Positions 9,584 through 23,609 of a DNA stretch of 64,000 nucleotides are shown piece by piece. The DNA lies in assembly GCA_965203055.1 (NCBI GenBank), contig OZ241863.1:576001-640000 (forward strand). The letters run 5' to 3'. The first letter of the stretch is position 1. Each line of letters starts with the position of its first letter. The position numbers and the translations under genes were made by a program. The stretch comes from Spirochaetia bacterium (GTDB taxonomy: Bacteria; Spirochaetota; Spirochaetia; SZUA-6; Bin103). The notes under the pieces were generated by a model. It searched no databases, was not told the origin of the DNA, and saw only the letters and a program-made list of their open reading frames with translations.

Positions 9584-9628
9584 GGCAGGATCGGTGTACC
9601 GCGGCGGTCAAGCGCACCGCGGGATGGT

Positions 9629-10747
9629 TTACGTGGTTGGTTTCAACCCGGTCCGTGATTCGTTCCTGAACCAGTCATAGGTTGGATAGTGAATGGGGTT
9701 TCGAGGGTCGTTTGCTGCGTAGATCAGCATGGCGCGCAGCTCCCGCATGGTCCGATCGACGCGTGTTCGAAATGGTTCGGTGCGGCGGAGAAGTTCCTGA
9801 TTCAAGGCTTCATCTTCCCGGACTTCCGTAAGGTCCGCAGATTCGCTTCCGCGATAGCGGGCGCTGGGATCGGTCCGTATCTTCAACTTCGTAATGCGCA
9901 GGTGAACGGAACCGGCGCCGTGTGGTTTGGCGCCTCCCAGTTTGTGGCGCAACGGGCCGCGCAGAGTCACGCCTGCTTGATCGCTGGCGCGGCCGACGGC
10001 TGCCGCACTCAGCTCGACGGTACTCTGTTCTTCGAGTACCAGACAGTAGACGAGCAGGTCGAGTTCCTCCTCCCGCAGGTTCTCGAAATCCACGGTGAAG
10101 CGAAAACGGGTGCCCGGCGGTGCGGGTGTTACCGTCGCCGTCTGTCTTATATTCGGGTGCGGCCGCGTGAGCCGGTCCGCCTCGACGCGGTGATGATAGA
10201 GCTTACGCCGGTTATTTCTCGGATAGAAAGACTGGTGGGACCGTTTGGGCTGACCGACGGTAACAGGGTAAGCCGGCCACTGGACTGGCGCGAATGGCTC
10301 GGCCAGTTCGGCGTCGCTGAAGCGAACCAGTCCGGCAAAGGCGTTGCTGCCATCCAGATAGCCGAACATCCTGGCGACGACGTCGAGGCTCGAGTCGCGT
10401 CGCGCCATAGCCAGTTGATGCTGCCGGTCGACGCTCGCCTCACGGAACGGTACGGCGGCATTGCCTATGATTTCAGCCAGGGATCGGATGGCGCCTTTGA
10501 GAGACGTGGCCGGGAGATATGGCTGAGGGCCGCCGCGCCGGCCGCCGGCCGCGTTGCGTACTATATGGCTTACGAACTGCCCCTTACCGTCGCCGACGAA
10601 CAACGGCGTCAACGCTTCGAGTTCGCACCAGACACGGCCGGCGAGGCCATCAAGATGATGGTGATAGTGCGGAACGTCGTGCTCCACAGCTCGATCGCTG
10701 ACGGTGACCCAACGGTACGGATTCCAGAACCGTTCGCGTTCAGGCAT
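9629..10747 (-). CDS. cas7: Type III-D terminal Cas7-family RAMP (TIGR03986-like)
   Basis: FWNPY, ELEALTPLFVG, LPATSLKGAIRS, RRKLYHH, KLGGAKPHGAG G-loop. Confidence 0.88.
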   Translation of the reverse strand: MPERERFWNPYRWVTVSDRAVEHDVPHYHHHLDGLAGRVWCELEALTPLFVGDGKGQFVSHIVRNAAGGRRGGPQPYLPATSLKGAIRSLAEIIGNAAVPFREASVDRQHQLAMARRDSSLDVVARMFGYLDGSNAFAGLVRFSDAELAEPFAPVQWPAYPVTVGQPKRSHQSFYPRNNRRKLYHHRVEADRLTRPHPNIRQTATVTPAPPGTRFRFTVDFENLREEELDLLVYCLVLEEQSTVELSAAAVGRASDQAGVTLRGPLRHKLGGAKPHGAGSVHLRITKLKIRTDPSARYRGSESADLTEVREDEALNQELLRRTEPFRTRVDRTMRELRAMLIYAANDPRNPIHYPTYDWFRNESRTGLKPTT

Positions 10748-11336
10748 CGGGACCTCCGTCCGCGGGCTCCAGGTCGCACAGGCGCAGGAAATGCGGCTCG
10801 CCTACGTCGTCGCGCCACTGCTCGATGACCACCTTGACGTGGCGGCTGCCGCCGGCAATCGGATAGCGGAAGCGATGTGGAATACGCAACTCGATCCATT
10901 CGCCGGGGCTGGCTTCGGTTTGCTGTCCCCACAGGTAGTAGCGCTCCCGCTTCGGCTGCAGCCTGTCCAGGATGTCGGAACAGTCCGCCAGTGCACCGTC
11001 CGTCCAATTGGCGTCGCCGAGAAAGACGGTGCGCCAGCAGGTTTCGCCAAGCGACGCAATGACGCGCCAGCGCAATTCGCCGTCGGGCGCGAACAGTCTC
11101 CCCGCCGTGGAGCGGGACAGGCAACCGCCCGTTCGTTCTGCGATCGGCTCGCGGCCGGCGCCGCACCAATGGAGATCGCGTTCGACGCCGCGCCACCAGT
11201 CGAACGCCCAGCCATCGGCCGCCTCCAGCCAGATGCGGCGCGAAGCCGTGCCGTTGGGCGGCGGATCGAGATTCGTAATGAGATCCAGAAATCCGTTGCG
11301 CGTCAGGTCAGCCGCTCTCAAGCAAGCCACGGTCAT
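10740..11336 (-). CDS. csx19: Type III-D Csx19
   Basis: Position between cas7 genes; GRLF..DGELRWR, YYLWG, WIELRIP..F.YP, final F.RL. Confidence 0.8.
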   Translation of the reverse strand: MTVACLRAADLTRNGFLDLITNLDPPPNGTASRRIWLEAADGWAFDWWRGVERDLHWCGAGREPIAERTGGCLSRSTAGRLFAPDGELRWRVIASLGETCWRTVFLGDANWTDGALADCSDILDRLQPKRERYYLWGQQTEASPGEWIELRIPHRFRYPIAGGSRHVKVVIEQWRDDVGEPHFLRLCDLEPADGGPDA

Positions 11337-12301
11337 GCTCCCGCCCGCTGTCGAGGTTGCCGGTTGGGCGCCTGCCCTCCAGGTCCTCCGTGCCAGCGCA
11401 GGAATGCTTCGAACGCCGGCGTCAGTGACTGCAATCGCACGGACCAGTCGTCCAGAACGTACTCCTGGCGCAGACCGCGCGGCGCCGCCGCCGGCAACGC
11501 AACCGGATCCGCCGGCGTCCAGTCGTGCAGGCGGTATGCCTCCCGCTCCCCGGTCGTCGCCAGTTGCCCGATGCCGGCCAACGACTGCGCGGGATGCAGA
11601 TAGGCCAGCCGGAAAGACGCCACTTTGGCGCGTACTCGCCCCATGCCTCGGCTGCGCCCCGATCCCACGGCGATCATCTCGTCCTTCAGATCGGCGAGCA
11701 GCAGGTTGAGCCCCGCCAGTTGCCAGAGCTCGAAGTTGGTCAGCCGAATGCGCGCCTCGAACTTGCCCCCGACCACCGCCTGCAGGTCGAACAACACGCC
11801 TTTCACGGTGCCTCCCGTGAAGCGGTCTATGCCCACGCCGTTGCGAGACTCGGGCGTTGGAGCGCAGCCCGGCAGCGGGTACGCATCGCCGATGCTGAAC
11901 CGGCCCGCGAACTTCAACGAACCGAACAGGCGGCACGCTGCGCACGAGTCGGCGTACCTGGCGGACGCAGGATCAGCTTCCTCGCCGCGGGAACGATACC
12001 CGCAGCCGTAAGACTCTTTCTCGTCATCGACCGGAATCGAGATGTCGTTTCGCTTCGGGTCGTAGTATGGCAGGCAGACGCTCCCCGGCTGCAGAGTGCG
12101 GGCGATGCGCTCGAAGTGACTGCGCAGGACGCCTTTGAGCGACGAACCCGGTAGATAATAGACGCTCTCGCCGTTCAGAAAGGTCACGACCGGCACCATG
12201 TCGGCGTCACCGAGCGTCGCGTAGCCGCTCTTGACCAGTACCGGATCCACGGGTTCGATCTCAATCGTCACGTCTGCTTGGCACAGCCACTTTCGCAGCA
12301 T
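11333..12301 (-). CDS. cas7: Cas7-family RAMP (Csm3-like)
   Basis: YLPGSSLKGVLRS, CAACRLFGS, RNGVGIDRFTG, GSGRSRGMG. Confidence 0.92.
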   Translation of the reverse strand: MLRKWLCQADVTIEIEPVDPVLVKSGYATLGDADMVPVVTFLNGESVYYLPGSSLKGVLRSHFERIARTLQPGSVCLPYYDPKRNDISIPVDDEKESYGCGYRSRGEEADPASARYADSCAACRLFGSLKFAGRFSIGDAYPLPGCAPTPESRNGVGIDRFTGGTVKGVLFDLQAVVGGKFEARIRLTNFELWQLAGLNLLLADLKDEMIAVGSGRSRGMGRVRAKVASFRLAYLHPAQSLAGIGQLATTGEREAYRLHDWTPADPVALPAAAPRGLRQEYVLDDWSVRLQSLTPAFEAFLRWHGGPGGQAPNRQPRQRAGA

Positions 12302-12302
12302 G

Positions 12303-13130
12303 TCACTCCTCCTCCGGCGCCAGTCGCAGGCGGCGCTGAATATGATCGCCAAAGAAGCCTTCCCAATCGCCCAGGTCACTTAGGCGGTCGTCCGACGTGG
12401 TCGACGTCAGAAACGTGACCCGCTGCTCCGGGTCACTCAGATCGACCCCCAGCAGCTTGATTTCTTCTTCCAGATGGAACCGCCCGAGGCCGCGGCTGGT
12501 AAAGCCGCCGATGCTGCTACCCGAGCGCCACTCAAACAGCGCGGCGCCGAGCAGGGCCAAGTCCCGGTCATGCGGATTGTCGAGATCGATGCGCAGCTTG
12601 AAGCGGCTGCCGGGAGGAACCACCTCGTAATCGTACTTGAGGCCATCGGCCGCGGTCTGGCTGTCGCGATCGATCACCACTCCGTCACGCACCTGCACCA
12701 CGTTGGCCCACTCCTTCAGCATGCCGTCGCTCACCCGCAGGCGGCCGGCCTGGACCGGCGACCCGAACAGCTTGCACACATCGCAAGTGTGATCGTCGAT
12801 CCACCGCAGCCGCCCTTCCAGATCCTGAGACGCCTTTCGATATTCGTCACGCGCCTTCTGGTAGTATTTGACGTCACTCGTACAGTTCACGCCGCTTGCC
12901 TGATGGTCCAGCAGACAGGCGCTCAGGCCCAAGGCGTGCGCCAGCGTCTCGCAGGTGCTCCGCAGCCTCCCCTTGAGCGAAGACCCGGGCAGGACGGGCT
13001 GGCCGGCAGGGTCCAACACGACGCCCAGGTCGCTGCTCTCTCCCTCTCTGCCCGATCCGATCCGCCACGCCGTCTCGAACACCAAGTAGGCGGTGACACT
13101 GATCTTACGGCGCAACGCGAAGTCTCTCAT
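12303..13130 (-). CDS. cas7: Cas7-family RAMP (Csx7/Csm3-like)
   Basis: RIGSG, LPGSSLKGRLRS, CDVCKLFGS, RDGVVIDR, IGGFTSRGLG. Confidence 0.92.
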   Translation of the reverse strand: MRDFALRRKISVTAYLVFETAWRIGSGREGESSDLGVVLDPAGQPVLPGSSLKGRLRSTCETLAHALGLSACLLDHQASGVNCTSDVKYYQKARDEYRKASQDLEGRLRWIDDHTCDVCKLFGSPVQAGRLRVSDGMLKEWANVVQVRDGVVIDRDSQTAADGLKYDYEVVPPGSRFKLRIDLDNPHDRDLALLGAALFEWRSGSSIGGFTSRGLGRFHLEEEIKLLGVDLSDPEQRVTFLTSTTSDDRLSDLGDWEGFFGDHIQRRLRLAPEEE

Positions 13131-13551
13131 ATTCCTCGACCCCCAACCGGTACAAGGCGTGCGTACAGAAGCGTTCGAAAAACGCCGGGATGTGAGTCTG
13201 TTCCCACGCCTCCCGCCGCTTGCGTTGGCGGCGCCTGGTCTCCGTACGAAGTTCAGGCGGTGCGTGCTTGTCCCCTTCCACACGGACGGACCACCCGTTA
13301 CGCGAATCGCAGAGTCTTTCCACTAGTTGCCAGAATTGGACTTCTGACTGCTTGTTCTTTCGTTCTGCCCGAGTACGCTGACGTTCGGCGAAGTTCTTGA
13401 CTTGCTCCGGTTGCTGACGAGCAATCTGCCGCAGACCGTAGATCTGCGCTGTTTTCACGGGGAACTTTCGGATCTCGCCAAGCAGCGTATCGAGTTGCTG
13501 ACGAGCCTGGTCGCGGTAAACAGTATCGGACAGCAGATCGACTATTGTCAT
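13105..13551 (-). CDS. Small helical subunit, Cas11/Csm2-like (second copy)
   Basis: 148 aa, helical, KTAQIYGLRQIA..VKNFAERQ, translationally coupled within the operon. Confidence 0.6.
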   Translation of the reverse strand: MTIVDLLSDTVYRDQARQQLDTLLGEIRKFPVKTAQIYGLRQIARQQPEQVKNFAERQRTRAERKNKQSEVQFWQLVERLCDSRNGWSVRVEGDKHAPPELRTETRRRQRKRREAWEQTHIPAFFERFCTHALYRLGVEEYERLRVAP

Positions 13552-13958
13552 GCGCCGGCCTCCATCCGCTGCAATGCGAGTCGGTACAGGTATTCGCCGA
13601 CGACAGCCTGTACCCAGCCGCGGGCAAGCCGGAGGCGCAAAGCCATTCGGTCATATTCGTCCCCCGTAAGGTCCTGACTGAGCTTGCGCAACCGCGCAAG
13701 CTGCTTCAGCACGTCGTTACCGAGCGCCATCCACTTCTTGTCTCCCTTGCCCATCTGGTTCTTGACGAAGTCCTCGATGTCGGCGAACCGGGTGGCGGAG
13801 CAGGCGATCTGCTGCAGGTTGCGTACCTGCGTGCTGATCTTCCCCTTGTCCGAGCCGAATTCGTCAAAGAATCGCCTGCCAAGAGAGGAGAACTTCTCGT
13901 GGTTCTCGTCAAGGTAGCAGTCAACCTTGCCGATCAGGTCGGCGTTCAAGACGTGCAC
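13548..13958 (-). CDS. cas11: Small subunit Cas11/Csm2-like
   Basis: STQVRNL..IA......IEDFVKNQMGK..W pattern; position after csx10. Confidence 0.72.
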   Translation of the reverse strand: MHVLNADLIGKVDCYLDENHEKFSSLGRRFFDEFGSDKGKISTQVRNLQQIACSATRFADIEDFVKNQMGKGDKKWMALGNDVLKQLARLRKLSQDLTGDEYDRMALRLRLARGWVQAVVGEYLYRLALQRMEAGA

Positions 13959-15184
13959 GGCTGCGCCTCCTGCATGGAAAATCGACGGTGGAACTCATCG
14001 GACACCGACACTACGCCGAAACCCTCGTTGCGCCGCAAGCCGATGCCGTCCTCGACCAGCGCCGCGAGCCGCGGGATAAACGCGTCGCGTTGGCTTGGCG
14101 CGCCCTCGAATCGATAGACGTAGGCCGCGCCGCGCGCGACCGCCCACTCGTCCTGACGCGGCAGACCGTGAGCCGCGTTCCAGCCGCGGAGGCGCTCGTG
14201 CCGGGTGACCGCGGCGATCCAGCGTACCGTACCGCCAGAATCGAGGAGCCGGACCGCCCGATTCCGTAGCGGGAACGCAGTCGAGACAGGGGACATGTGC
14301 GGCAGCCATCCAACCATGTCCGCCGGGTCCAGGGAATAACGCAGAAACCGATCCACCATCACGGCGCCGGTCGGAAGTGAAATCGCGAAGAAGAAGCCGT
14401 CCGCCAAGTTCGTAATGGATAGCTTCCGCAGAAAGTTGCTCAGGTCGGCGTTCCATCGAACCCACCGATCGGCCTGCGAGCGCAGGTTCTCCGGCGCCGC
14501 CGGCTCTCCGAGCGTCACGTGCACGTCTCCGTAGCCGCGCGTGCGGGCATGGCCGACGGAAATGCGGCCCGCTTCATCCTGCAGGAGCCGCCGCAACGTG
14601 TCGAGCGCGTCGTCATCAGCCCGGAGCCAACCATGGAGATCGGCATCGTTTCCGGAGGGCGCCAGCGCTTCCAGGGTGTAGAAGATGGAGTCCGCGGCGG
14701 TGCCGGTCCGGCGGTCGATGCCCACGTGAGAGGCGACCTGCAGAGTGCTCGCCTTCTTACAAACGCGGCCGGACTCGTCGCGCCAGAAACCATCCTCCGC
14801 CTTCAAGTCCGCATCGCACTGCGCGCACTGCTGCCAGGCTTCCGCGCCGCCGGCCATCCGGCCCGCCGAGTAGTGTTGCGCGACGCGGAACCAGAGCAGG
14901 TCCACCAGGGCATGCTCAAGCCGTTCGTGCTTGCAGGAAGCCGCGGTCAGCGGGAATACCTGCGGAGCGGGGTCCAGCGGTCCGAAGCGGCAGGCGGCAT
15001 CGTTAAGAAACACCCGTTCGAAGGTCTCGTCAGTCCGCCCATGGCGCTGCAGGTAGAGCGATGCGAAGGCCCCGCGCACGAGAGTGCCCGCCACCGACCG
15101 GGCACTCCCAGAGCGTTCGGACTGCCGATCGCGCCTGATCGCCAACGGGGCAAGCAACCGCGCGGTGACAGAGACGATTTTCAT
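13946..15184 (-). CDS. csx10: Csx10 (Cas5-family RAMP of type III-D)
   Basis: GTLVRGA, HVGIDRRTG, VGHARTRGYG, GWN...GLPR, GIGLRRNEGFG. Confidence 0.85.
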   Translation of the reverse strand: MKIVSVTARLLAPLAIRRDRQSERSGSARSVAGTLVRGAFASLYLQRHGRTDETFERVFLNDAACRFGPLDPAPQVFPLTAASCKHERLEHALVDLLWFRVAQHYSAGRMAGGAEAWQQCAQCDADLKAEDGFWRDESGRVCKKASTLQVASHVGIDRRTGTAADSIFYTLEALAPSGNDADLHGWLRADDDALDTLRRLLQDEAGRISVGHARTRGYGDVHVTLGEPAAPENLRSQADRWVRWNADLSNFLRKLSITNLADGFFFAISLPTGAVMVDRFLRYSLDPADMVGWLPHMSPVSTAFPLRNRAVRLLDSGGTVRWIAAVTRHERLRGWNAAHGLPRQDEWAVARGAAYVYRFEGAPSQRDAFIPRLAALVEDGIGLRRNEGFGVVSVSDEFHRRFSMQEAQPCTS

Positions 15185-15924
15185 GCCATGTCTCCGCGCA
15201 GCTCGTCGATCCACTTGGCCCATTCGCCTCTCCATCTCGCGAAGCTGGTGAGGGAATACTCCGGGGTCTCGGTGGCGCCGTTCCAACGCAGTGACTCGAT
15301 ACGTACCTCGCACCTACCCAAACCGGTGCTCTTGTCGCCGCCCAGAGTATCCAGCGACAGCAGCCCAGCCACCAGAAGCGCATACTCGTAAGGGAACTCA
15401 TCATCGTCTTCTTGCGTCAGAACACCGCCGGGATGCCGGGCGCGGATGGCGCCTTGCAATTCGACATCCGCTTCGACCAGTTCCGTGGTAAACAAGTGTC
15501 GTTCCATGACCGTACCGGTGACACGATCGATGGCGGTGCGCGCGGCCACGGCCGGCGTTCCCTTCTCCGCCTTGCTTGGCACGGCGTTGGTCATGAACAC
15601 GCACTCACCTTGGTAGCGGCTGCCGAACAGTCGGTCGATCAGCAGCTTGGACTTGGCCAGTGGCCGGAAATGTTCCACGAGGCTCCGGTCGCCTTCTCCG
15701 GCGCCTGCATGCGGATCGACCGCTTCGAGGCCGAGCGCCAAGGCAAGCCGCTCGCACTGATGCCGCAGCACGCCCTTGACTTGCGAGCCCGGCACGAAAG
15801 GCGCTCCCGCTCCGCCGAGTCGCTGCTGCAAACGATCCACTGCGGCCGACCCGTAGCCGCTGCCGACGTGCCAGCGTCCGTTCCATGCGATGCGGTAACC
15901 GATGTCCAAGCGCTGCGGTTTCAA
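15181..15924 (-). CDS. cas7: Cas7-family RAMP
   Basis: WHVGSG, VPGSQVKGVLR, LFGS, RTAIDRVTG, LGGDKSTGLG. Confidence 0.9.
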   Translation of the reverse strand: MKPQRLDIGYRIAWNGRWHVGSGYGSAAVDRLQQRLGGAGAPFVPGSQVKGVLRHQCERLALALGLEAVDPHAGAGEGDRSLVEHFRPLAKSKLLIDRLFGSRYQGECVFMTNAVPSKAEKGTPAVAARTAIDRVTGTVMERHLFTTELVEADVELQGAIRARHPGGVLTQEDDDEFPYEYALLVAGLLSLDTLGGDKSTGLGRCEVRIESLRWNGATETPEYSLTSFARWRGEWAKWIDELRGDMA

Positions 15925-17585
15925 CGTCCGCTCTCCTCCTGAGTATCCGGAAACAGATCATAGGCATCTACGATGTCGGCCACGCACAGCGACCGTCGGT
16001 TGCCGGACTGAAACCACGGAAAGCAGACCTCATGGCCGGCGGGCTGCAGACGTTTCACGGCGTTCCACAGGGCACGGCGTTGCGACGGTTCGGCGCCATG
16101 CCGGGCGCGGGCGAAGATTTCCCGGATGCGGCGTTCCGCATGCTGCTCCCGGGCGGTGAGGGCAGCGTCCAGGAGCTCGTGCAGCTTGCTGCGCGGAAAG
16201 CTGGCCCGGCGTAACTCCCGGACCGCGGCGCGCACCTCCTGCAACTTCAATCGCGTCAGTGGTCGCAGTGTTCTCGGCGCTTTGTCGGTGTGATAGGTAC
16301 CCCTTCTTACGTCCTGGAGATCGAGGCTGTTGGCTCCGGCTACGACGTGAAAATCGATGCGGGCGGTGTCACGCTTCCCGTTCATGGCGTTTGGGCTGCG
16401 CTTGGCATTCTGCAGCAAGGCCGTGGCCAGGTCCAAAGCCAGGTAGAACGGATACGTGCTCCGGACGATGGCAACGCCGCAGGAAATCGTGAAGCCGTTG
16501 TCGCCCCGGTGCTCCCGGAAGAAGCGCCGGGCGCCGTCATCCGGCACGGCTTCGATTTTTGCGCGAGTGAGCCGCTCGAACTCCGCGGTGACGTGGCATG
16601 CGAAGTCGAGGGCGCGGTCGGCCGGCAGGGCGACCAGCAGATCATCGCCGCCAAGCAGCAGGACGTCGGCCGGCAGCGGAGGCGGCTGGCGGCCCCGATC
16701 GATGGTGTCTCGGATACGCTTGACATCGGTGCTCATAACCGCATCGAGGCCGGAGAAACACGCCTCCCGGATGCTCTCGTCGACGACCTTGCTGAAGTGC
16801 CGGCACGTCTCCGAGCTGTCCAGCGCCTGCACGACCTTGCCCATCGCGTTCCCGTCGGCGTACACCACACCGACGTAGTTGCGCCATGACGACCGGTCGC
16901 CGATAGCCGTCATGTCCGCGCACCGCAGAGCATGCCATTCCTCCTGCGGAGGCCATGGGCCGGCGCTTGCCAGATGTTCCATCCACTTGGACCAGACCGC
17001 CCCGGCGCGCGATTCCCGCCCTTCGCACGCCTTCCGATGGCTCGCCTCGGACAACATGGCGGCCCCTTCCGCGCCATGGTCCGTGAAGCGCGCCGCCGGC
17101 AGATGCGAGGCGGACCGACACTCCATGATCGCGGGCAGGGTGGAGGCGCCGTAACGACCGCCGCCAAACCCCCGGCGGCAGCGCAACTGGAAGTGGGCCC
17201 GGTCCACCGCGCAGCGGTACCCGCCGTCCGGCAGTGGCGCGATGCCGTAGGCCGGCCGCACCTCGCCCCCGGTCCGGTCACGGACGTAGCGCACCATGCG
17301 CCGGCAGGCGGACTCCACCGTGTCGGCGTCGCACTGCCGCACGATGAACTGCGCCGAACCGCCATTGGCATAGATCGTCTCCAGGGCCGCGGTTTCGAGG
17401 TGCTCATCGAGCACCCGCTCCATTTCGTGTCGATTCAACCGATCCAGCCAGGCGCTGGCCCCGCGCACCTCATTCAATCGATCCGTGCCGAACACGTAAC
17501 TCTTGATCGACGGGACATCGATCTGAACCAGGAATGTCCCGGTCTTTCCGGGATCACCGGCTTGGTTCACGGCTTCTCTCGACAT
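15921..17585 (-). CDS. cas10: Cas10 (type III-D, no HD domain, intact cyclase Palm2)
   Basis: IDVPSIKSYVF, YANGG, YADGNAMG, LLLGGDDLL, TISCGVAI; about 555 aa with no N-terminal HD domain. Confidence 0.93.
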   Translation of the reverse strand: MSREAVNQAGDPGKTGTFLVQIDVPSIKSYVFGTDRLNEVRGASAWLDRLNRHEMERVLDEHLETAALETIYANGGSAQFIVRQCDADTVESACRRMVRYVRDRTGGEVRPAYGIAPLPDGGYRCAVDRAHFQLRCRRGFGGGRYGASTLPAIMECRSASHLPAARFTDHGAEGAAMLSEASHRKACEGRESRAGAVWSKWMEHLASAGPWPPQEEWHALRCADMTAIGDRSSWRNYVGVVYADGNAMGKVVQALDSSETCRHFSKVVDESIREACFSGLDAVMSTDVKRIRDTIDRGRQPPPLPADVLLLGGDDLLVALPADRALDFACHVTAEFERLTRAKIEAVPDDGARRFFREHRGDNGFTISCGVAIVRSTYPFYLALDLATALLQNAKRSPNAMNGKRDTARIDFHVVAGANSLDLQDVRRGTYHTDKAPRTLRPLTRLKLQEVRAAVRELRRASFPRSKLHELLDAALTAREQHAERRIREIFARARHGAEPSQRRALWNAVKRLQPAGHEVCFPWFQSGNRRSLCVADIVDAYDLFPDTQEESGR

Positions 17586-17669
17586 AGCATGGCAGTTCGA
17601 TCCAGCGACTCGATCATACCGCCACACTCCACAAGGTGCAACGCCGTCATCTGCGTGATCTTCCCTGCG

Positions 17670-18896
17670 TCAGTCAGCAAGGCAGATTCTGAAAGCATCG
17701 TCCAGGGCGTCCCGTAGCCGACCGGGATCATCGAGTATTCCGCGGGACCTCCGTTGCGGACGGGTCGTGTGCGCAAGGGAGTTGCGGATGTGTTGGAGAT
17801 TCAGGTGGGCGAGCTGCCGCTCGCCGGCGCAGTTGGTTGTCAGCTCTATCGTGGCCGCCTTTCGAAGTTCTTCATCATATCGATATTGGTCGACAGGCCT
17901 TCCGTTACTCTGATTCTGACACCACCGGTTGATGCAGGCTTCCCAGCCCAACATCGCCGCGCGCACGAAGTCGTGGCGGTTCAGGTATTGGTAAGCGAGC
18001 TCCCGCTGCCGTTGCCACGGCTGGCCTTGTTTCACCCACCGCAGCCGCTTCTCCAACTCCTCCTTGAACAGACCGGACGCTCCACCGAGCGGTGCGGCGC
18101 GCTCCGACAGATAGGACAGGAACGTGCGCACTCTGTTCTCGGCGGCAGGCACGTTGAGAATGCGTTCGTAGAACGACGCGTTCGTCAGGCACCTGGCCTT
18201 ATCATACGGCACGCCGTCTGCGACGAGCAGCGGTTCGAACATCCCCAGGTCCCCGGTCGCGTCATACCGTTCCAGCGCCGCCACCCAACGCCTGACGCGG
18301 ACCAGTCCATCCAGCTTGAGCACCGGCGTGATTCCTTCCCGCGTCATGTCCACAGCGCCGTACCACAGGTCCTTGACCTCGAGACTACGGACGCGCTCCA
18401 GCATGAAGGCCGACAGGAAACCCACCATGGCGAGATGGCGGAACCCGTGCGTAAGGTCGAAACTCACGGTGCCGTCCGGTACCACCTTCGGATCGGCGAT
18501 GGTGGCAAGGATGCCGTACTGCTCACCAAGAGACTCCCCGTACGGTATGAGACGCGGTAGTACGTCGCAACGAGTCCGCTCTTTCATGAGCGGCGTTACG
18601 CGGTCAAGGAGGTCCTGGTCGACGGCAGACTTGGGCTCGGCCTCCAGCAGCTCGATACGCGCTTCCTCGTACTCGTCGCCCTCCTGCGTCGCCACGTGCT
18701 CGACCAATGCGCCCCACTGACTGCCGCGCGTGCCAAGTATCACGATCGCATCCGGCTGCAGATGCTCTGCCAACGCCAGTCCGAAGAACTCGGTTTCCTT
18801 CGTGGTTCCGTCGGGAAACAGATAGTTGGCCTTGCGATATGGCGTTTCCTTTGTATCCCTGCCTCGCCCAAGGAACGTTACCACCGTGTGCTTCAT
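17670..18896 (-). CDS. csx1: Csx1-family CARF-HEPN ribonuclease (TM1812/TIGR02221-like)
   Basis: TFLG, Y.KANY.F, ILGT.GS.W, DLTHGFRH CARF motif, C-terminal HEPN RNSLAH; GGAGG SD. Confidence 0.9.
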   Translation of the reverse strand: MKHTVVTFLGRGRDTKETPYRKANYLFPDGTTKETEFFGLALAEHLQPDAIVILGTRGSQWGALVEHVATQEGDEYEEARIELLEAEPKSAVDQDLLDRVTPLMKERTRCDVLPRLIPYGESLGEQYGILATIADPKVVPDGTVSFDLTHGFRHLAMVGFLSAFMLERVRSLEVKDLWYGAVDMTREGITPVLKLDGLVRVRRWVAALERYDATGDLGMFEPLLVADGVPYDKARCLTNASFYERILNVPAAENRVRTFLSYLSERAAPLGGASGLFKEELEKRLRWVKQGQPWQRQRELAYQYLNRHDFVRAAMLGWEACINRWCQNQSNGRPVDQYRYDEELRKAATIELTTNCAGERQLAHLNLQHIRNSLAHTTRPQRRSRGILDDPGRLRDALDDAFRICLAD

Positions 18897-18962
18897 TGCG
18901 CCCTCCAATGTGGGTTTGAGTCCGTCCCGCCTGTTTGGACTTCGACGGTAGCACGATAATTC

Positions 18963-18982
18963 TAAGCAATTTCCGTGCCATC
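18963..18982 (-). promoter_or_regulatory. Sigma-54 (-24/-12) promoter P1 for the csx1-cas10 effector operon
   Basis: Minus strand GATGGCACGGAAATTGCTTA contains TGGCACG-N4-TTGCT exactly; about 70 bp upstream of the csx1 ATG. Confidence 0.88.
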
Positions 18983-19111
18983 GTCGAGAGTCTACCGGCG
19001 AAGCCTGCACAGAACAGCGGAGTCGCCACTCGGTAGGTCGCTTTCATGGCCGCGCGCTCGCCACCGCCGGATCAGCGTGCCCGACCTTTACCATAGGCCG
19101 ACTCGCCCTGG

Positions 19112-19160
19112 ATTGCAACGGGTGTCGCAATAAATCTTCCATTCATGTAACGTATGTTAC
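19112..19160. promoter_or_regulatory. Two inverted repeats, candidate activator/operator sites
   Basis: ATTGCAAC-GGGT-GTCGCAAT (19112-19131) and GTAAC-GTAT-GTTAC (19147-19160) in an AT-rich patch 130-180 bp upstream of P1. Confidence 0.45.
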
Positions 19161-19261
19161 GATCACGGCCAACCTGTTCCGGCCACTGAGCAATGGCACG
19201 GCTGCAGGCTCTTCATGCGGTGCCGCCGGCGTGGCTGCGGAATTGGGAAAGGAGGACGACG

Positions 19262-20761
19262 ATGCGTAGCATCCTGATCAGTTGGATCGGCAATACGGAC
19301 CTGAAAGCGTCGCAGGGAGGCGCGGAGGGTATCGGACCGGTGGCCAAGGCCGTGGAGGACGGTACGTACGACGACGCCTTTCTGCTCACCACGTATGGCG
19401 ACGAGGCGGAACGCTACCGAGAGTGGCTCGAAGGGCGCGCGAGCGGGATCAGTCTCCACCTGCTGCACGAGCGGCTCACCAGCCCCACGGCCTTCGGCGA
19501 GGTCTACCCAGCCGCGGTCCGCGCCTGCGAACGGGCGCGCGCGGCCGCCGGTCCGGGCGCCGCGCTCACGTTCCATCTGAGCCCCGGCACGCCGGCCATG
19601 TCCGCGGTGTGGATCATCCTGGCCAAGACGCGCTTCGAGGCAACGATCATCGAGTCGTCGAAAGAGCACGGCGTCCGGGAGGTCTCCGTCCCCTTCGACA
19701 TCTCGGCTGAGTTTCTCGCCGATCTACTGCGGCAGCCGGACCGGGATCTGGAACGTCTGAGCGCCGGGCTGCCGCCGCAGGCGCCCGCCTTCGACGAGAT
19801 CGTCCATCGCAGCCCGGAGATGCGGCGCGTCATTTTGCTCGCCCGGCGGGTCGCGCTGCACTCGGTGCCGGTTCTGATCGAGGGAGAGTCCGGCACGGGC
19901 AAGGAGCTGATGGCGCGGGCCATCCACCACTCGAGCCCACGACGGGAGGAACGGTTCATCTCGGTCAACTGCGGCGCAATACCTGAGAATCTGGTTGAGT
20001 CGGAGTTGTTCGGCCATGAGAAGGGCGCGTTCACCGGTGCCGTCAAGATGCGAAAGGGGCACTTCGAAGCCGCGAGTGGCGGAACGCTATTTTTGGATGA
20101 GATCGGGGAGCTGCCGCTTTCGGCGCAGACGAAGCTGTTGCGCGTCCTGCAGGAAGGGACGGTCCAGCGTGTCGGCAGCAGCGACACGCGTTCAGTAGAC
20201 GTGCGCGTCATCGCGGCGACCAACCGTACCCTGACGGAGGAGGTCGCACGCGGCCGGTTCCGCGAAGACCTCTTCTATCGTCTGGCGGTGGCGGTGCTCA
20301 AGCTGCCGCCGCTCCGCGAGCGCGGCGGCGACGTCGGGCCCATGACGGATCATCTTCTCGTCCAAATCAACCGCGAGTTGGCGAAAGCTCTTGGTTATCG
20401 GCGCAAAAGCCTTTCCGCTTCGGCAAGGAATCTTCTTACTCGGCACCCGTGGCCGGGCAACGTACGCGAGTTGCGCAACACGCTGATGCGCGCCGCGCTC
20501 TGGTCGGCGGGCGACATCATCACGGGGGACGACCTGCGCGGTGCGCTGCTATCGGCGCTCGGCGACCGCAAGCGGGACGTGTGGGACCGTCCCTTGGGCG
20601 GCGGTTTCAGCATCGAGGCGCTGTTGGCGGAGATCAGGCGCCATTATCTGAGCCGCGCGATGGAGAAGGCCGGCGACAACAAGACCAGGGCAGCCAAACT
20701 ACTGGGACTCCGCAGCCATCAGACGCTCAGCAACTGGCTGAAACAGCACGCGGCGGAATGA
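19262..20761 (+). CDS. RtcR-like sigma-54-dependent activator (CARF-like N-terminus, AAA+, Fis-HTH)
   Basis: N-terminal SWIGNTD..GP and FHLSPGTPAM; GESGTGKE, FGHEKGAFTGA, FLDEIG, RFREDLFYRL, WPGNVREL; NKTRAAKLLGL; AAGGAGG SD. Confidence 0.9.
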   Translation: MRSILISWIGNTDLKASQGGAEGIGPVAKAVEDGTYDDAFLLTTYGDEAERYREWLEGRASGISLHLLHERLTSPTAFGEVYPAAVRACERARAAAGPGAALTFHLSPGTPAMSAVWIILAKTRFEATIIESSKEHGVREVSVPFDISAEFLADLLRQPDRDLERLSAGLPPQAPAFDEIVHRSPEMRRVILLARRVALHSVPVLIEGESGTGKELMARAIHHSSPRREERFISVNCGAIPENLVESELFGHEKGAFTGAVKMRKGHFEAASGGTLFLDEIGELPLSAQTKLLRVLQEGTVQRVGSSDTRSVDVRVIAATNRTLTEEVARGRFREDLFYRLAVAVLKLPPLRERGGDVGPMTDHLLVQINRELAKALGYRRKSLSASARNLLTRHPWPGNVRELRNTLMRAALWSAGDIITGDDLRGALLSALGDRKRDVWDRPLGGGFSIEALLAEIRRHYLSRAMEKAGDNKTRAAKLLGLRSHQTLSNWLKQHAAE

Positions 20762-20779
20762 TGGCACGATTATTGCTTA
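20760..20779 (+). promoter_or_regulatory. Sigma-54 (-24/-12) promoter P2 for csb2C-cas1-cas2
   Basis: GATGGCACGATTATTGCTTA, consensus TGGCACG-N4-TTGCT; abuts the activator stop codon. Confidence 0.88.
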
Positions 20780-20833
20780 TCAGGTATTGAGGGCCGAGTT
20801 CGGAACGAGCCGTCAGCCCCGGAGGAAAGAATC

Positions 20834-20914
20834 ATGGCGCAGGACGTAGAGAAACTACTGACGACGACTAGCACCCACGCCAACCCGCCTCGCGGCCCGC
20901 GGAGACGCGCGTGA
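20834..20914 (+). CDS. 26-aa leader ORF or gene remnant (MAQDVEKLLTTTSTHANPPRGPRRRA)
   Basis: Strong GGAGG SD at 20821; its TGA overlaps the GTG of the next gene (GTGA). Confidence 0.45.
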   Translation: MAQDVEKLLTTTSTHANPPRGPRRRA

Positions 20915-21642
20915 CCGGCGGGCCGGCGCGCGCGGCGCGGATGCCGGATTGCGTGCGCTTTCGTCTCACCGGCGACCGGCTCCCGACTGCGCGCCTGGGG
21001 CATCAGGTCGCCGAACGCGCCCGCCGCGCCGCGCTCGGCCGGGCACGCATGATGTACGGACCGGACGGCATACCCGCGGCGCTGTCGGGCCACGGCGCCC
21101 AGGCCGGCGCGCCGGCCCTGGAGCACCGGCACGCCTTCTGGCTGCCGGAGGATGCCGACGGCGACGGGCGCATCGACCATCTCACCGTGCACGCCCGGGC
21201 GATGGACGGGACGGCGCTGGCGGCGCTGTTGGCCGCGGACATCGCCGTCCATGCACGACGCGAGCACTGGCGCGCAGCCTCGGACTGGATCGGCCGCCAT
21301 GACGAGCCGGACATCCCCACGGCCCTGCTGGAGGTCGCGGTCGAATGGGTCTCCGTCGCTCCCTACTACCGGCCGTGGCACGCGAAGCGCGGCTTCTCGC
21401 AGGACGACATGATCCGCCGCGAATGCGCCGCGCGCGGTCTGCCTCCGGTGACGGAGGTGGAGTTGATCGGCTCCGGCGCCGCCCCGCCGCGCTGGCGCTG
21501 GCGCGAAAGCGCGCCGAAGGGGAACGGCCGGGGCACGGCGTGGCGGCTGGTCTTCGCCGCGCCCGTGCGCGGGCCGCTGGCGTTCGGCTACGGCTGTCAC
21601 TTCGGCCTCGGCCTGTTCGCCCCGGAGTCGGGCGATGCGTGA
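20911..21642 (+). CDS. csb2: Cas6-like crRNA processing protein resembling the C-terminal half of type I-G Csb2
   Basis: LSGHG, H.HAFWLPED.DGDGRIDHL.V, W.S..PY, GPLAFGYGCHFGLGLF; only 243 aa. Confidence 0.8.
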   Translation: MTGGPARAARMPDCVRFRLTGDRLPTARLGHQVAERARRAALGRARMMYGPDGIPAALSGHGAQAGAPALEHRHAFWLPEDADGDGRIDHLTVHARAMDGTALAALLAADIAVHARREHWRAASDWIGRHDEPDIPTALLEVAVEWVSVAPYYRPWHAKRGFSQDDMIRRECAARGLPPVTEVELIGSGAAPPRWRWRESAPKGNGRGTAWRLVFAAPVRGPLAFGYGCHFGLGLFAPESGDA

Positions 21643-22678
21643 CGCCGACCGGCGCGACCGCGCCGCGGCCATCCGCCATCCGGTCTACGTCAACAACCAG
21701 GGCGCGCGCATCGGCCTGACCGGTCACACCCTCGAGGTGGCGATGCTGGACAAGCGCCGGCGCCGGCACCTGCGCCTGGACGAAATGTCCGAAATGACCG
21801 TCATGGGCAACATCCAGGTAACCACGCCTGCGCTGCAGGAACTGATGCGGCGCGGCATCCCGGTGTGCTGGACGACCTCCTCCGGCTGGTTCCTGGGCGC
21901 CACTTCCGGCTTCGGCCACGGCGATGGCGCGTTGCGCGCGGAACAGCACGCCGCCGCCGCCGACCCCGCGCGCCGCGTCGCCTTTGCCCGCACTTGGGTG
22001 GCCGCCAAGATCCGGAACTGCCGCACCCTCCTGCGCCGCAACGGGAGCGGCCGCGAGGCGAAGATCGCAGTGCGTCAACTGACGGAACTCGTGGAAAACG
22101 CGGAACGCACCGCCGATCTGGACAAGCTGCGCGGCTACGAGGGCGCCGCGGCCGCCGCCTACTTCAGGACCTTCCCGGCCATGCTGCGCGGGCGGGCGGC
22201 CTGGGCCGCCGAACGGTACCGGGGCCGCAACCGCCGGCCGCCGCGCGATCCGGTCAACGCCGCGCTCTCCTTCGCCTACGCCGTCCAGACCCGCTCCTGG
22301 AGCGTCGCCGTCACCGCCGCCGGACTCGATCTGTTCACCGGGTTCCTGCACGGCTTCCGGCATGGTCGTCCCGCGTTGGCGCTCGACCTGATGGAACCGG
22401 CGCGGCCGCGGATCGCGGATTCCGCGGTCCTGCGCATATTCAATTCGGGGATGCTGAAAGCCGGCTACATGGAACAGGAGGGCAACGCAGTCCTGCTCGG
22501 CGAGCAGGGCCGGCGCGTCCTGCTGGACGCACTGGAAGACCGGCTGGACGAGTCGAGCCTCCACGACCGCCTGGGGCGGGCCATCATCTACCGCGACCTG
22601 CCGTCCATCGAAGCCGCCCGCCTCGCGCGCGCTCTGCGCCGCAACGACGAGCCGCCGGCGCAGATGAGCTGGCGGTAG
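21635..22678 (+). CDS. cas1: Cas1 (type I-G-like, no Cas4 or RT fusion)
   Basis: PVYV..QGARIG, LRGYEG.AA..YF, RNRRPPRDPVNAALS, GFLH, PALALDLMEP.R. Confidence 0.95.
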   Translation: MRDADRRDRAAAIRHPVYVNNQGARIGLTGHTLEVAMLDKRRRRHLRLDEMSEMTVMGNIQVTTPALQELMRRGIPVCWTTSSGWFLGATSGFGHGDGALRAEQHAAAADPARRVAFARTWVAAKIRNCRTLLRRNGSGREAKIAVRQLTELVENAERTADLDKLRGYEGAAAAAYFRTFPAMLRGRAAWAAERYRGRNRRPPRDPVNAALSFAYAVQTRSWSVAVTAAGLDLFTGFLHGFRHGRPALALDLMEPARPRIADSAVLRIFNSGMLKAGYMEQEGNAVLLGEQGRRVLLDALEDRLDESSLHDRLGRAIIYRDLPSIEAARLARALRRNDEPPAQMSWR

Positions 22679-22693
22679 CAGCGGAGCGTCCTC

Positions 22694-22969
22694 ATGCCGC
22701 CTGCCGGAAGGGACTACCTGGTAGCCTACGACGTTTCGTCCCCCAAGCGGTGGCGCCGGGTCTACCGGCTGCTGCACGGTTACGGCGACTGGGTTCAGCT
22801 TTCCGTGTTCCGGTGCCGGCTGGACCCCCGACGCCGCCGCCGGATGGAGCAGGAGCTGCGCGCCGTGATGGAGACCGCCGAAGACCGGCTGCTCATCGCG
22901 CGGCTGGAGGAGGACGGACAAACGGCCGCCGACCGGGCGAAGTCGGATCGACGGGCATTGATCGTGTAA
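22694..22969 (+). CDS. cas2: Cas2
   Basis: YLVAYDV..PKRWRRV...L.GYG..VQLSVF.C. Confidence 0.95.
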   Translation: MPPAGRDYLVAYDVSSPKRWRRVYRLLHGYGDWVQLSVFRCRLDPRRRRRMEQELRAVMETAEDRLLIARLEEDGQTAADRAKSDRRALIV

Positions 22970-22981
22970 CCGCCGCGCGGC

Positions 22982-23609
22982 GTGCTATGCTGGCCGGCGT
23001 CTGGAGGCGTGGTCGAATGCCTCGGGTACTACTTCCGCAACCACCCCGACGTGTACGTGTCCGGCAGCCTGCTGATCTACTACGAGGAAGGGACGCGGGC
23101 GAGGGTGGCGCCGGACGTGTTCGTGGTGTTCGGCGCGGGCAAAGAAGAACGCTCGTCGTACCTGCTGTGGAAGGAGGCCAAGGCGCCCGACTTCGTGCTG
23201 GAGATCGCGTCGCCGGGGACGTGGCGGGACGATCAGACCTGGAAGCGGGAGTTGTACCGCCGGCTGGGGGTGGGTGAGTACTGGCAGTACGATCCGACGC
23301 GGAACTACCTGCAGCCGCCGCTGCAGGGGTTGGAGTTGGAGGTTCTACGATCCGCAGACCGGAGAGGAGCTGCGGAACTTGGCGGAGGCCGAAGACGGAC
23401 GCCGGGAGGCGGAGGCCCGCGTGGAGCAGGAAGCGGCCGCCCGCCGCCGGGAGGCAGCCGCCCGCCAGGCCGCAGAAGCCCGCGTCCATCAGGAGGCGGC
23501 CGCCCGCCAGGCCGCAGAGACCAGCGCCCACCAGGAAGCGGCTGCCCGCCAAGCGGCCGAAGCGCGTTTGGCCGAACTCGAGGCATTGTTACGCCGCCGA
23601 TCCGACTGA
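22982..23609 (+). pseudogene. Uma2-family endonuclease, 5'-truncated and frameshifted near 23340
   Basis: VAPDVFVV, PDFVLEIASP.T...D, KR.LY..LGV.EYW.YDP; coiled EAAARQAAE tail in another frame. Confidence 0.8.

Follow-up and report, generated by a model that had tools for sequence, protein, structure and literature searches.

In E. coli and Salmonella, the rtcBA RNA-repair operon is regulated by RtcR, a protein of CARF–AAA+–HTH architecture that is encoded divergently from this sigma-54 target operon. Sigma-54 promoters are normally off until an activator of this type fires. PspF, the sigma-54 activator of the psp operon, is also divergent from its target, though it lacks a CARF domain and answers to the protein PspA instead; its binding sites overlap its own promoter. 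In archaeal CRISPR loci, the CARF-wHTH protein Csa3 binds cA4, and a passage of PMC8699464 treats it as a precedent for cas expression controlled by cyclic oligoadenylate (cOA). In its relevant passages, Makarova (2014) describes PspF as a close homologue without a sensor domain, reports regulators of the RtcR_PspF2 family beside restriction–modification (R-M) systems and counts RtcR-like proteins among the CARF groups that as a rule do not lie near cas genes; in those of Bell (2024), RtcR_PspF2 regulators head CoCoNuT/type I R-M superoperons. These passages put forward the same ligand, RNA ending in a 2′,3′-cyclic phosphate (RNA>p), and the same HEPN RNase feedback idea as are considered here, and they do not report −24/−12 boxes; the text of Bell (2024) contains 'promoter' once and 'RpoN' not at all.

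The RtcR_PspF2 family is so far known from computer cataloguing. In the 64-kb stretch of DNA analysed here (the window), a member has the effector operon of a type III CRISPR-Cas system on one side and the processing/adaptation operon on the other. It shares with the defence-island regulators its protein family and the predicted sigma-54 activation of adjacent defence genes, whereas its targets are the two flanking CRISPR-Cas operons. Such wiring, with a promoter at the regulator's stop codon, was not found in the searchable literature, although the family and its predicted role were, as the original prediction had noted of CARF-AAA regulators, already in print in passages of Makarova (2014) and Bell (2024). 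Like Csa3, the regulator would be a CARF sensor acting on CRISPR gene transcription; Csa3 differs in having no AAA+ motor, not using sigma-54 and belonging to another CARF family. We suggest, with a probability of roughly 0.55, that the regulator, its signal likely being RNA>p, opens the sigma-54 promoters of both CRISPR operons.

A CARF–AAA+–HTH regulator of the RtcR_PspF2 family

The regulator gene (19262..20761, plus strand) is an ORF of 499 aa that the PADLOC model RtcR_PspF2 (PDLC01995; CARF_AAA_HTH) matches end to end (E 5e-194, residues 3–497 against 2–479 of 481). This model scored 643.9 bits, compared to 186 bits for the PADLOC model RtcR, and the NCBIfam RtcR model reached 342.8 bits, short of its cutoff of 650. 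RtcR_PspF2 was also the best PADLOC model for all 16 related regulators tested, whereas E. coli RtcR was assigned to the separate RtcR model. A CARF domain (aa 1 to about 145) is followed by a sigma-54 AAA+ domain with GAFTGA, Walker A GESGTGKE and Walker B LFLDEIGE (Pfam Sigma54_activat, 1.8e-72; AAA_lid_14, 3.4e-18) and a C-terminal Fis-type HTH, whose HTH_8 match (7.8e-4, 19.6 bits) is under the Pfam cutoff of 22. The regulator with GAFTGA and Walker motifs between two operons was found as originally described; judged from profiles and a structural model, it is an RtcR-like CARF–AAA+–HTH sigma-54 activator of the catalogued family.

The CARF character of the N-terminus was borne out by an AF2 model (pLDDT 84.9) with the topology b1-a-b2-a-b3-a-b4-a-b5-b6 hairpin. 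Foldseek against the PDB returned 56 matches at E ≤ 0.001, and among the matches listed all were CARF proteins, including Csm6 with a cA6 analogue (6tug; E 3.1e-7, TMq 0.65). The N-terminus aligned with residues 1–190 of E. coli RtcR in hhalign (probability 95.8%, E 7.7e-9; aligned residues 68–137 only), and a BLASTP alignment of 376 columns, which starts in the CARF domain and extends into the AAA+ domain, showed 33% identity. These alignments indicate that the N-terminus is related to the RtcR CARF domain, and the two proteins are related over their CARF and AAA+ domains. Nevertheless, the CARF domains are 22% identical, the Pfam RtcR domain did not match the N-terminus, and the family motifs W-I-G-[HN]-[TA]-D-L-[KR]-A and HLSPGTPAM differ from FVGTVLDYA and HITTGTHVA of RtcR. 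The window's first CARF loop, WIGNTDLKA, is a family-wide variant with nothing special to the window, and HLSPGTPAM is identical in 118 of 120 listed homologues. This motif contains no K or R after strand 4, a lack taken in a passage of Makarova (2014) as a sign that the ligand differs from the one bound by canonical CARFs.

The CRISPR-Cas operons

The effector operon comprises 10 genes on the minus strand. The first is csx1 (17670..18896; CARF and HEPN, RNSLAH), with matches to NCBIfam TIGR02221 (2.9e-43, over cutoff), a DxTHG motif model (2.8e-7) and PADLOC CARF2--CARF_HEPN (1.5e-123). It is followed by a short cas10 (15921..17627) that lacks an HD domain, retains GGDD (LLLGGDDLLV) and may start at the ATG at 17585 (Pfam Cas10-Cmr2_palm2, 9.2e-14; PADLOC Cas10, 5.6e-65), and by a Csm3/Cmr4-like RAMP cas7 (15181..15924; Pfam RAMPs, 3.8e-16; PADLOC Csm3, 1.1e-17). 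The Cas5 of type III-D, csx10 (13946..15184, start at 15184), matched PADLOC Cas5_IIId (8.7e-42) and, under the cutoff of 177.3, NCBIfam TIGR02674 (3.3e-41, 141.8 bits). A weak match to PADLOC Csm2 'CAS-III-D; effector_SS' (9.2e-7) suggests a Csm2-like type III-D small subunit (13548..13958), and next to it an ORF of 148 aa (13105..13551), with a GGAGG ribosome-binding site (RBS) and overlapping both adjacent genes, had no match in Pfam, NCBIfam or PADLOC. Two csx7-type cas7 genes matched NCBIfam TIGR02581, one over cutoff (12303..13130; 1.6e-37) and one just under the cutoff of 108.05 (11333..12301; 2.8e-29, 102.3 bits). The operon continues with a csx19-like gene (10740..11336), weakly matched by NCBIfam TIGR03984 (1.5e-5, under cutoff) and PADLOC Csx19 (3.1e-6), and ends with a type III RAMP like NCBIfam TIGR03986 (9629..10747; 8.3e-44, 150.9 bits, under the cutoff of 161.35). 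Csx10/Cas5_IIId, Csx19, several Cas7 proteins, Csx1 and a GGDD Cas10 without HD support a type III-D-like assignment, in agreement with the type III-D call made before.

On the plus strand, a stand-alone cas6-like gene (20911..21642) corresponds to the C-terminal half of Csb2 (Cas5/Cas6), a type I-G protein, matching NCBIfam TIGR02165 over cutoff (4.2e-18, profile positions 252–492 of 492) and PADLOC Cas56g (2.5e-43). Type I-G-like cas1 (21635..22678; Pfam Cas_Cas1, 2.3e-79; PADLOC Cas1g, 7.4e-91) and cas2 (22694..22969; Pfam CRISPR_Cas2, 5.6e-18) follow, and the CRISPR array at 23898..25504 consists of 22 copies of a 37-nt repeat (GTCACC...ATTGAAAC).

Sigma-54 boxes facing both operons

Each operon is faced by an exact −24/−12 sigma-54 box. 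P1 (TGGCACGGAAATTGC; 18966..18980, minus strand) lies within the type III-D cassette, 19 bp from its edge, and faces csx1, whose ATG at 18896 stands behind a GGAGG RBS. P2 (TGGCACGATTATTGC; 20762..20776, plus strand) begins at the base directly after the regulator's TGA stop codon and faces the cas6-like gene, cas1, cas2 and the array, which has the same orientation. These are the only exact matches to TGGCACG-N4-TTGC in 64 kb (shuffle mean 0.03; 0 of 100 shuffles reached 2), confirming the predicted boxes. With one mismatch allowed there are still 2 sites, which is chance level (shuffle mean 2.20; 63 of 100 reached 2), so the signal lies in exactness and placement rather than in count. The 20-nt elements at 18963–18982 and 20760–20779 are complementary at 17 of 20 positions, as had been counted, but this likeness says little alone because about 12 of the 20 are set by the consensus.

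The view that such promoters are silent without the activator proved too strong here. A sigma-70-like site, TCGACG-17-TAGAAT (18987..18959), overlaps P1, and no terminator-like site was found between the regulator gene and P2; both operons may thus be leaky. The DNA upstream of P2 is regulator coding sequence, in which no enhancer site for P2 was found, and the window contains no rpoN gene. The regulator itself probably has its own, weak promoter.

Related loci and cassette replacement

The comparison covered 18 related loci (302,908 bp), of which 17 retain the regulator's 3′ end; 15 genome loci were retrieved with peptide patterns of the window's own regulator, such as WIGNTDLK, and form a biased sample. 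Their N-terminal domains are 30–59% identical to that of the window's regulator, except for one close relative, L001, at 88%. Twelve of the 17, from five phyla, had a sigma-54 box between −19 and +7 nt of the regulator's stop codon. Boxes scoring at least 11/12 were at regulator ends in 12 of 12 cases, and those scoring at least 10 in 17 of 34; the boxes are thus conserved in homologous loci. A divergent box 120–140 nt upstream of the regulator occurred in 4 of 18. Only one locus in 18 was CRISPR-linked, in 17 no cas10 lay closer than about 10 kb, and type I R-M genes adjoined the regulator in eight. Other neighbours included ARPP-1/DUF2130, VWA-PP2C-kinase, an SbcCD-like pair, RmuC and BrnT/BrnA, and no partner gene beside the regulator was conserved across the 18. 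Among the closest relatives, which are 75–99% identical, the neighbourhood comparison covers L001 only, so the window's regulator may belong to a subclade that is dedicated to CRISPR loci and has a ligand of its own.

L001 carries the window's CRISPR repeat, with 2 mismatches, 3′ of its cas2. A blastn block aligns window 18999–19088 with L001 9305–9394, and at this right-hand junction the window retains what is left of the opening codons of a cmr1-like gene (MKATYRVATPLFCAG...; 18999..19047, minus strand), which in L001 is Cmr1. A type III-D cassette that carries a promoter of its own has taken the place of the type III-B cassette present in L001. The effector operon of L001, which is of type III-B, has no sigma-54 box scoring at least 10/12, and the family thus does not always control the effector.

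Proposed activation of the locus

In the reading that we prefer, the CARF domain would, as in RtcR, keep the regulator's ATPase off when no ligand is present. Upon infection or RNA damage it would bind a signal common to many hosts, as the range of neighbours in the 18 loci suggests, our best guess being RNA>p. The ligand-bound regulator would then oligomerise and open two promoters, with P1 driving csx1, cas10 and the type III-D effector genes, and P2, abutting the stop codon, driving the cas6-like gene, cas1, cas2 and probably the array. The locus is probably turned on when the cell senses infection. RNases of the Csx1 HEPN and CARF_RelE families leave cyclic-phosphate ends, and each of the two CRISPR-linked loci encodes such a CARF RNase (Csx1 HEPN in the window, CARF_RelE in L001). 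The Csx1 HEPN RNase of the locus, when activated by cOA, would itself be one source of these ends. The original prediction, partly supported overall, had offered both cOA and RNA ends made by Csx1 as signals; the latter fit better, and a passage of Bell (2024) has published the same idea for this family beside CoCoNuT systems.

Direct binding of cOA made by the Cas10 GGDD, with a few basal complexes on target setting off a sigma-54-driven burst of interference, crRNA processing and adaptation, seems distinctly unlikely to us. The top structural matches, such as Csm6, are indeed cOA-binding CARF domains, GGDD is kept in the Cas10 of both the window and L001, and these two closest known members both lie inside type III loci, the only neighbourhoods on record for the closest clade. 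However, the same family with the same CARF motifs stands beside non-CRISPR systems in 17 of 18 loci, which argues against a Cas10–cOA–regulator feedback. The near-invariant HLSPGTPAM loop and the family-wide WIGNTDLKA also speak against it, and in the window and L001 a dedicated receptor for cOA is already present, Csx1 in the one and CARF_RelE in the other. The L001 effector operon, moreover, is without a box, and tightly closed sigma-54 promoters would leave little Cas10 complex to begin the loop.

A signal other than RNA>p and cOA, such as another nucleotide-derived alarm, a phage product or a protein partner of the CARF domain, is possible though unlikely. The divergence of the CARF motifs from those of RtcR and the missing Pfam RtcR match would fit it, as would two published points: direct binding of both RtcA and RtcB to the CARF domain of RtcR is described by Kotta-Loizou (2022, PMC9650030), and a passage of Makarova (2014) also names a phage-specific nucleotide as a possible ligand. 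Yet the 18 loci share no partner gene of the regulator, and neither rtcA nor rtcB was found in the window. Very improbable is a regulator that acts elsewhere, with both boxes functionless and the operons on ordinary promoters or read-through. The sigma-70-like site, the lack of a terminator-like site and the chance-level count of one-mismatch boxes agree with this, but two exact, correctly oriented boxes against 0.03 expected, and the recurrence of the stop-codon placement and of strong boxes at regulator ends, do not.

The regulator's binding site may be a GTAA-N6-TTAC palindrome (19147..19160), which lies upstream of both P1 (by 167 bp) and the regulator's start codon (by 115 bp), a candidate proposed from its sequence and position. 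It is the one exact copy in the window, and of seven exact copies in 366,908 bp, four (those of the window, L008, L011 and L012) are no more than 300 bp upstream of the start of a regulator gene.

The regulator protein

The regulator, a 499-aa protein encoded at 19262–20761 on the plus strand, was matched from end to end by the PADLOC model RtcR_PspF2--CARF_AAA_HTH (PDLC01995; E = 5e-194, 643.9 bits; regulator residues 3–497 against profile positions 2–479 of 481), and the sister models RtcR_PspF1 and RtcR gave 243.7 bits and 186 bits (2.2e-55), respectively. Pfam identified its sigma-54 AAA+ domain (PF00158, 1.8e-72) together with the AAA+ lid, and the GAFTGA loop, Walker A and Walker B are readable in the translation, GAFTGA being present in 110 of the 120 best-listed homologues. 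The C-terminal Fis-type helix–turn–helix (HTH) scored under the Pfam cutoff (HTH_8, 7.8e-4, 19.6 bits against 22), with the PADLOC profile reaching residue 497. With residues 1–178 alone, Pfam gave no meaningful match at E ≤ 10, its RtcR N-terminal domain included, and the best match of an N-terminal-domain profile to PDB sequences had an E-value of only 0.8. The AlphaFold2 model of these residues (16 sequences; pLDDT 84.9, pTM 0.78) has strands at 3–8, 38–43, 64–69, 101–105, 127–133 and 137–140 in a Rossmann-like beta-alpha arrangement whose last element is a beta5–beta6 hairpin. Foldseek returned 56 PDB matches to it at E ≤ 0.001, and all those listed are CARF proteins (Csm6, ring nucleases, Cami1, Card1, Can2, Cad1, Cam1 and Cdn1). 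The N-terminal-domain profile aligned with residues 74–143 of Escherichia coli RtcR (probability 95.8%), and BLASTP aligned the regulator with E. coli RtcR at 33% identity, without interruption across the junction of the CARF and AAA+ domains. The CARF fold, the RtcR alignments and the family match thus show that the original prediction was right in calling the protein a CARF-domain sigma-54 activator.

The equivalog score of NCBIfam RtcR was not reached (NF038308; 342.8 bits against a cutoff of 650), and neither rtcA nor rtcB was found among the window ORFs scanned; the regulator is therefore a member of a catalogued sister family of RtcR and not RtcR itself. E. coli RtcR adjoins its own rtcB/rtcA operon, whereas the regulator has none, and Csa3, a cOA-responsive transcription factor that binds cA4, has a CARF domain fused straight to a winged HTH, in contrast to the CARF–AAA+–HTH architecture seen here. 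The PADLOC model names presumably stem from the CARF classification of Makarova et al. (2020). Among the best 120 homologues, the first CARF loop reads W-I-G-[HN]-[TA]-D-L-[KR]-A, and the second reads HLSPGTPAM in 118. In the Protein Atlas, the clusters closest to the regulator include the Pfam RtcR domain; their scores were at most 0.85, and they were treated as leads only. The longest contig is 7,467 bp in both the regulator cluster P0025 and the cas6-like cluster P0122, the sole trace of co-location and a lead at the level of coincidence.

Sigma-54 promoters and the type III-D-like locus

P1 (TGGCACGGAAATTGC, 18980..18966, minus strand), which points into the effector operon, and P2 (TGGCACGATTATTGC, 20762..20776, plus strand), which points into the cas6-like/cas1/cas2 genes and the array, both match TGGCACG-N4-TTGC exactly; the two exact divergent boxes that had been predicted are thus present, as the sole exact matches in the 64 kb. 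A mean of 0.03 exact boxes was expected, and none of 100 dinucleotide-preserving shuffles gave two. Allowing one mismatch added no site in the window, and the shuffles gave a mean of 2.20, with at least two in 63 of 100, so that this count is at chance level and the weight of the boxes lies in their exactness, orientation and placement. Both have a GG-to-GC spacing of exactly ten bases and are oriented towards a gene: the csx1 ATG lies 70 nt past the end of the P1 box, and P2, which begins on the base right after the TGA stop codon of the regulator gene, is followed by a small ORF (20835) and then the cas6-like gene (20911). The predicted likeness of the 20-nt elements around P1 and P2 (17/20) is real, though about 12 of those 20 positions are fixed by the consensus. 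A sigma-70-like match (TCGACG-17-TAGAAT, 9/12; 18959–18987, minus strand) overlaps P1 and could supply basal expression of the effector operon, and no terminator-like site was found between the regulator gene and P2; the switch may thus be leaky. No rpoN was found among the ORFs scanned in the 64 kb.

The effector operon comprises ten genes on the minus strand, from 18896 to 9629, packed tightly or overlapping and mostly preceded by GGAGG-type ribosome-binding sites. In order, these are csx1 with CARF and HEPN domains (TIGR02221 above cutoff; PADLOC CARF2--CARF_HEPN 1.5e-123), a short cas10 with GGDD and without an HD domain, a Csm3-like cas7, csx10 (the Cas5 of type III-D; NCBIfam 141.8 bits against a cutoff of 177.3), a Csm2-like small subunit, an ORF without a known family, two csx7-type cas7 genes, a csx19-like gene (NCBIfam 24.7 bits against a cutoff of 35) and, last, a TIGR03986-like RAMP gene. 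The type III-D gene set of Cas10, Csx10, Csx19 and several Cas7 genes is present, in agreement with the predicted type; because several NCBIfam scores, such as those of Csx10 and Csx19, are below the curated cutoffs, we label the system a divergent, type III-D-like variant. Candidate parts for signalling by cyclic oligoadenylate (cOA), the expected Cas10 product, are recognizable by sequence in the GGDD motif of Cas10 and in Csx1 with its CARF and HEPN domains.

The P2 operon, on the plus strand, comprises a stand-alone cas6-like gene equivalent to the C-terminal half of Csb2 (type I-G), then cas1 (type I-G-like) and cas2. Downstream of it is a CRISPR array with 22 copies of a 37-nt repeat, oriented as P2 is. 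The array end distal to the promoter (24904–25441) consists of three tandem 149-nt units (two spacers plus repeats) that are 96–100% alike, with point changes in some repeats. Between cas2 and the array, an ORF at 22982–23677 carries a Uma2-family endonuclease domain (Pfam 5.6e-17, aa 18–110), followed by G/P-rich direct repeats (23393–23550), and an ISL3-family transposase gene (26589–27854) lies approximately 1.1 kb past the array end. Third-position GC is approximately 0.73–0.82 in the CRISPR-Cas genes (9600–23000), below the value of approximately 0.9 in the housekeeping-type genes on either side, which fits an acquired island.

Comparison with the closest relative

The closest related locus, L001, is on the chromosome of a Spirochaetia MAG (OZ241907.1). 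Using blastn, window positions 8389–9583, 18999–19088, 19125–19184, 19216–20831 and 20887–22981 were aligned with L001 positions 3–1197 (97%), 9305–9394 (83%), 9525–9582 (82%), 9957–11574 (89%) and 11766–13855 (95%), respectively. The L001 array lies downstream of these blocks, and its repeat is two mismatches from that of the window; it starts approximately 320 nt past cas2, and L001 had no blastn match to window 22982–23639. The interval separating the first two blocks holds, in the window (9584–18998), the type III-D cassette with csx1 and P1 and, in L001 (1198–9304), a CARF_RelE gene and type III-B genes, namely cmr1, cas10/cmr2 with GGDD intact, cmr3, cmr4, cmr5 and cmr6. Otherwise the two loci are syntenic at 83–97% identity in the flanks, the regulator, cas6-like/cas1/cas2 and the array, and a type III-B cassette has been exchanged for a type III-D cassette. 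The first codons of a cmr1-like gene are retained in the window (19047–18999). A 291-aa ORF without a known family (8708–9583) shares 99% identity with the corresponding L001 ORF and is therefore taken as the left anchor of the swap.

The incoming cassette includes P1, 19 bp from its edge, and no box scoring at least 10/12 was found in the L001 Cmr operon. L001 has an exact sigma-54 box at 9623, ahead of a 98-aa DUF1232 ORF and then the regulator gene, which suggests autoregulation; the window retains only the last codons of this ORF. As a remnant of such an autoregulatory promoter, TGGCACGG at 19193–19200 was set aside, having no −12 element and being out of register with the L001 box, and it remains uncertain.

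On the right-hand side of the junction, the DNA conserved between the window and L001 is now situated approximately 20–200 bp upstream of P1 and contains the sole GTAA-N6-TTAC palindrome in the window (19147–19160). Exact copies are enriched shortly upstream of regulator genes, where four of the seven in 366,908 bp lie; two of these four are from the close relatives L011 and L012. The palindrome at 19147–19160 is taken as a candidate binding site of the regulator. A search for an enhancer common to P1 and P2 gave only short matches (shared 11-mers and palindromes, 30–320 nt upstream of each), those upstream of P2 falling in conserved coding sequence. By eye, TTGT-N5-8-ACAA palindromes were seen 20–45 nt before the regulator start in L002, L007, L009, L010, L011 and L014, overlapping what resembles a sigma-70 promoter (TTGTAA/TAnAAT) for the regulator gene, and these may be operators.

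Related loci

A single search of species-representative genomes, with the N-terminal domain as the query, yielded 15 loci, and three of the five records from a plasmid search were examined, giving 18 related loci in all. The genome loci were picked by exact peptide patterns of the window regulator, mainly WIGNTDLK, and the ‘invariant’ first CARF loop in the alignment is therefore partly built in. Apart from L001, the N-terminal domains were 30–59% identical to that of the window regulator, and RtcR_PspF2 was the best PADLOC match for all 16 regulators tested.

GG-N10-GC sites were scored against 12 fixed consensus positions on both strands of 302,908 bp. All 12 sites scoring at least 11, and 17 of the 34 scoring at least 10, were at regulator gene ends. 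Twelve of the 17 loci retaining the 3′ end of the gene have a co-directional box between −19 and +7 nt relative to the stop codon (L001–L004, L008, L011–L014 and L017–L019, but not L006, L007, L009, L010 and L015), compared to an expected background, based on the 17 non-flank sites, of approximately 0.0008 boxes per 27-nt interval. The −24/−12 boxes are thus conserved in homologous loci, and the stop-codon placement of P2 is, by these frequencies, a hallmark of the RtcR_PspF2 family; no statement of such a promoter was found in the literature searched. A divergent box lies 120–140 nt ahead of the regulator gene in L005, L006, L008 and L012. A tree of 18 regulators, from which L005 (truncated) and L006 (frameshifted) were left out, was an unresolved star in which only the grouping of L011 with L012 was supported and E. 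coli RtcR had a very long branch; the tree says nothing on the order of events.

Neighbouring genes were analysed with Pfam for 85 of 145 ORFs (at least 85 aa, within approximately 7 kb of the regulators), the 60 farthest being omitted, and from the plasmid annotations. Type I restriction-modification genes follow the regulator in eight of the 18 loci (L002, L004, L008, L010, L012, L014, L018 and L019), ARPP-1 precedes it in L003, L010 and L012, together with DUF2130 in L003 and L012, and VWA-PP2C(-kinase) sets occur in L013, L015 and L017. Further neighbours in other loci are an SbcCD-like pair, RmuC, SIR2 with a helicase, TPR-CHAT and BrnT/BrnA, the last a toxin–antitoxin pair directly 3′ of the regulator in L009 (2364–2880). 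Among the 18 loci, cas genes with an array were found in L001 only. These neighbourhoods agree with two earlier studies. Makarova et al. (2014; PMC4012209) describe RtcR-like CARF-NtrC-HTH proteins as ‘often associated with restriction-modification’ and predict sigma-54 activation upon sensing of RNA ending in a 2′,3′-cyclic phosphate (RNA>p) or of a phage nucleotide; Bell et al. (2024; PMC11090510) place RtcR homologues at the head of CoCoNuT, type I restriction-modification and Druantia superoperons, note their pairing with BrnT/BrnA and propose RNA>p sensing with HEPN feedback.

Mechanism and signal

The best-supported reading of the locus is a stand-by switch. The regulator would be present at a low level with its CARF domain holding the ATPase off; Hughes (2020) describes RtcR as constitutive once the CARF domain is deleted. 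An infection or RNA-damage signal would free the regulator, upon which P1 and P2 would fire, and Csx1 activated by cOA may add RNA>p in this locus, providing indirect feedback.

Because of the homology to RtcR, RNA>p is the leading candidate for the signal. The original prediction also allowed for direct sensing of cOA by the CARF domain of the regulator, and the CARF fold is indeed closest to cOA receptors, while both nearest members, those of the window and L001, lie within type III loci. However, the neighbouring systems across the family vary widely, which points to a signal independent of Cas10, and we consider a direct cOA input improbable; the earlier interpretation is supported in part. 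Equally doubtful is the proposal that the regulators of the window and its nearest relatives belong to a subclade of RtcR_PspF2 dedicated to CRISPR, in which the CARF domain would read what the type III system itself produces, either cOA from Cas10 or cyclic-phosphate RNA ends made by the RNase that cOA activates. Were it true, one target recognition would lead to a sigma-54-driven burst of effector, Cas6, Cas1–Cas2 and crRNA, the regulator would be a transcriptional amplifier linking interference with spacer uptake, and effector cassettes with their own −24/−12 promoter (III-B exchanged for III-D) could be placed under a single, constant switch.

Both the regulator family and the logic predicted for it were described before. 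To these, the present analysis adds the cassette swap, the family-wide stop-codon promoter and the predicted coupling to both operons of this type III locus; in the literature searched, we found no experimental study or report of a CARF/RtcR activator wired to type III CRISPR, nor, in the same literature, a bench test of any RtcR_PspF2 regulator. The link between infection and type III CRISPR-Cas expression is poorly understood, and the locus offers a compact test bed, with one regulator, two exact sigma-54 promoters, a GGDD Cas10 and a HEPN RNase, for deciding whether cOA or RNA>p is the signal. The stop-codon sigma-54 promoter, found across five phyla, makes a twelve-year-old bioinformatic prediction directly testable and suggests that a single type of alarm sensor keeps many defence islands (type I restriction-modification, VWA-PP2C-kinase and CRISPR) on stand-by. 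The swap, next to which the regulator, the adaptation module and the array stayed the same, illustrates the exchange of effector modules.

Other genes in the window

Rfam and tRNA scans of the window gave no matches. A two-gene candidate defence system, PDC-M47A/B, lies at 43835–45710 (PADLOC 1.4e-158 and 3.8e-52), its first gene encoding an AAA_15/AAA_21 ATPase related to PD-T4-4_A. A large type II DNA methyltransferase gene (28799–31261; PADLOC MTase_II 7.8e-238) is adjoined by ORFs of 691 and 363 aa that have no family match, and a PIN-domain toxin gene lies beside an Xre/MbcA/ParS-type antitoxin gene at 1372–2152.
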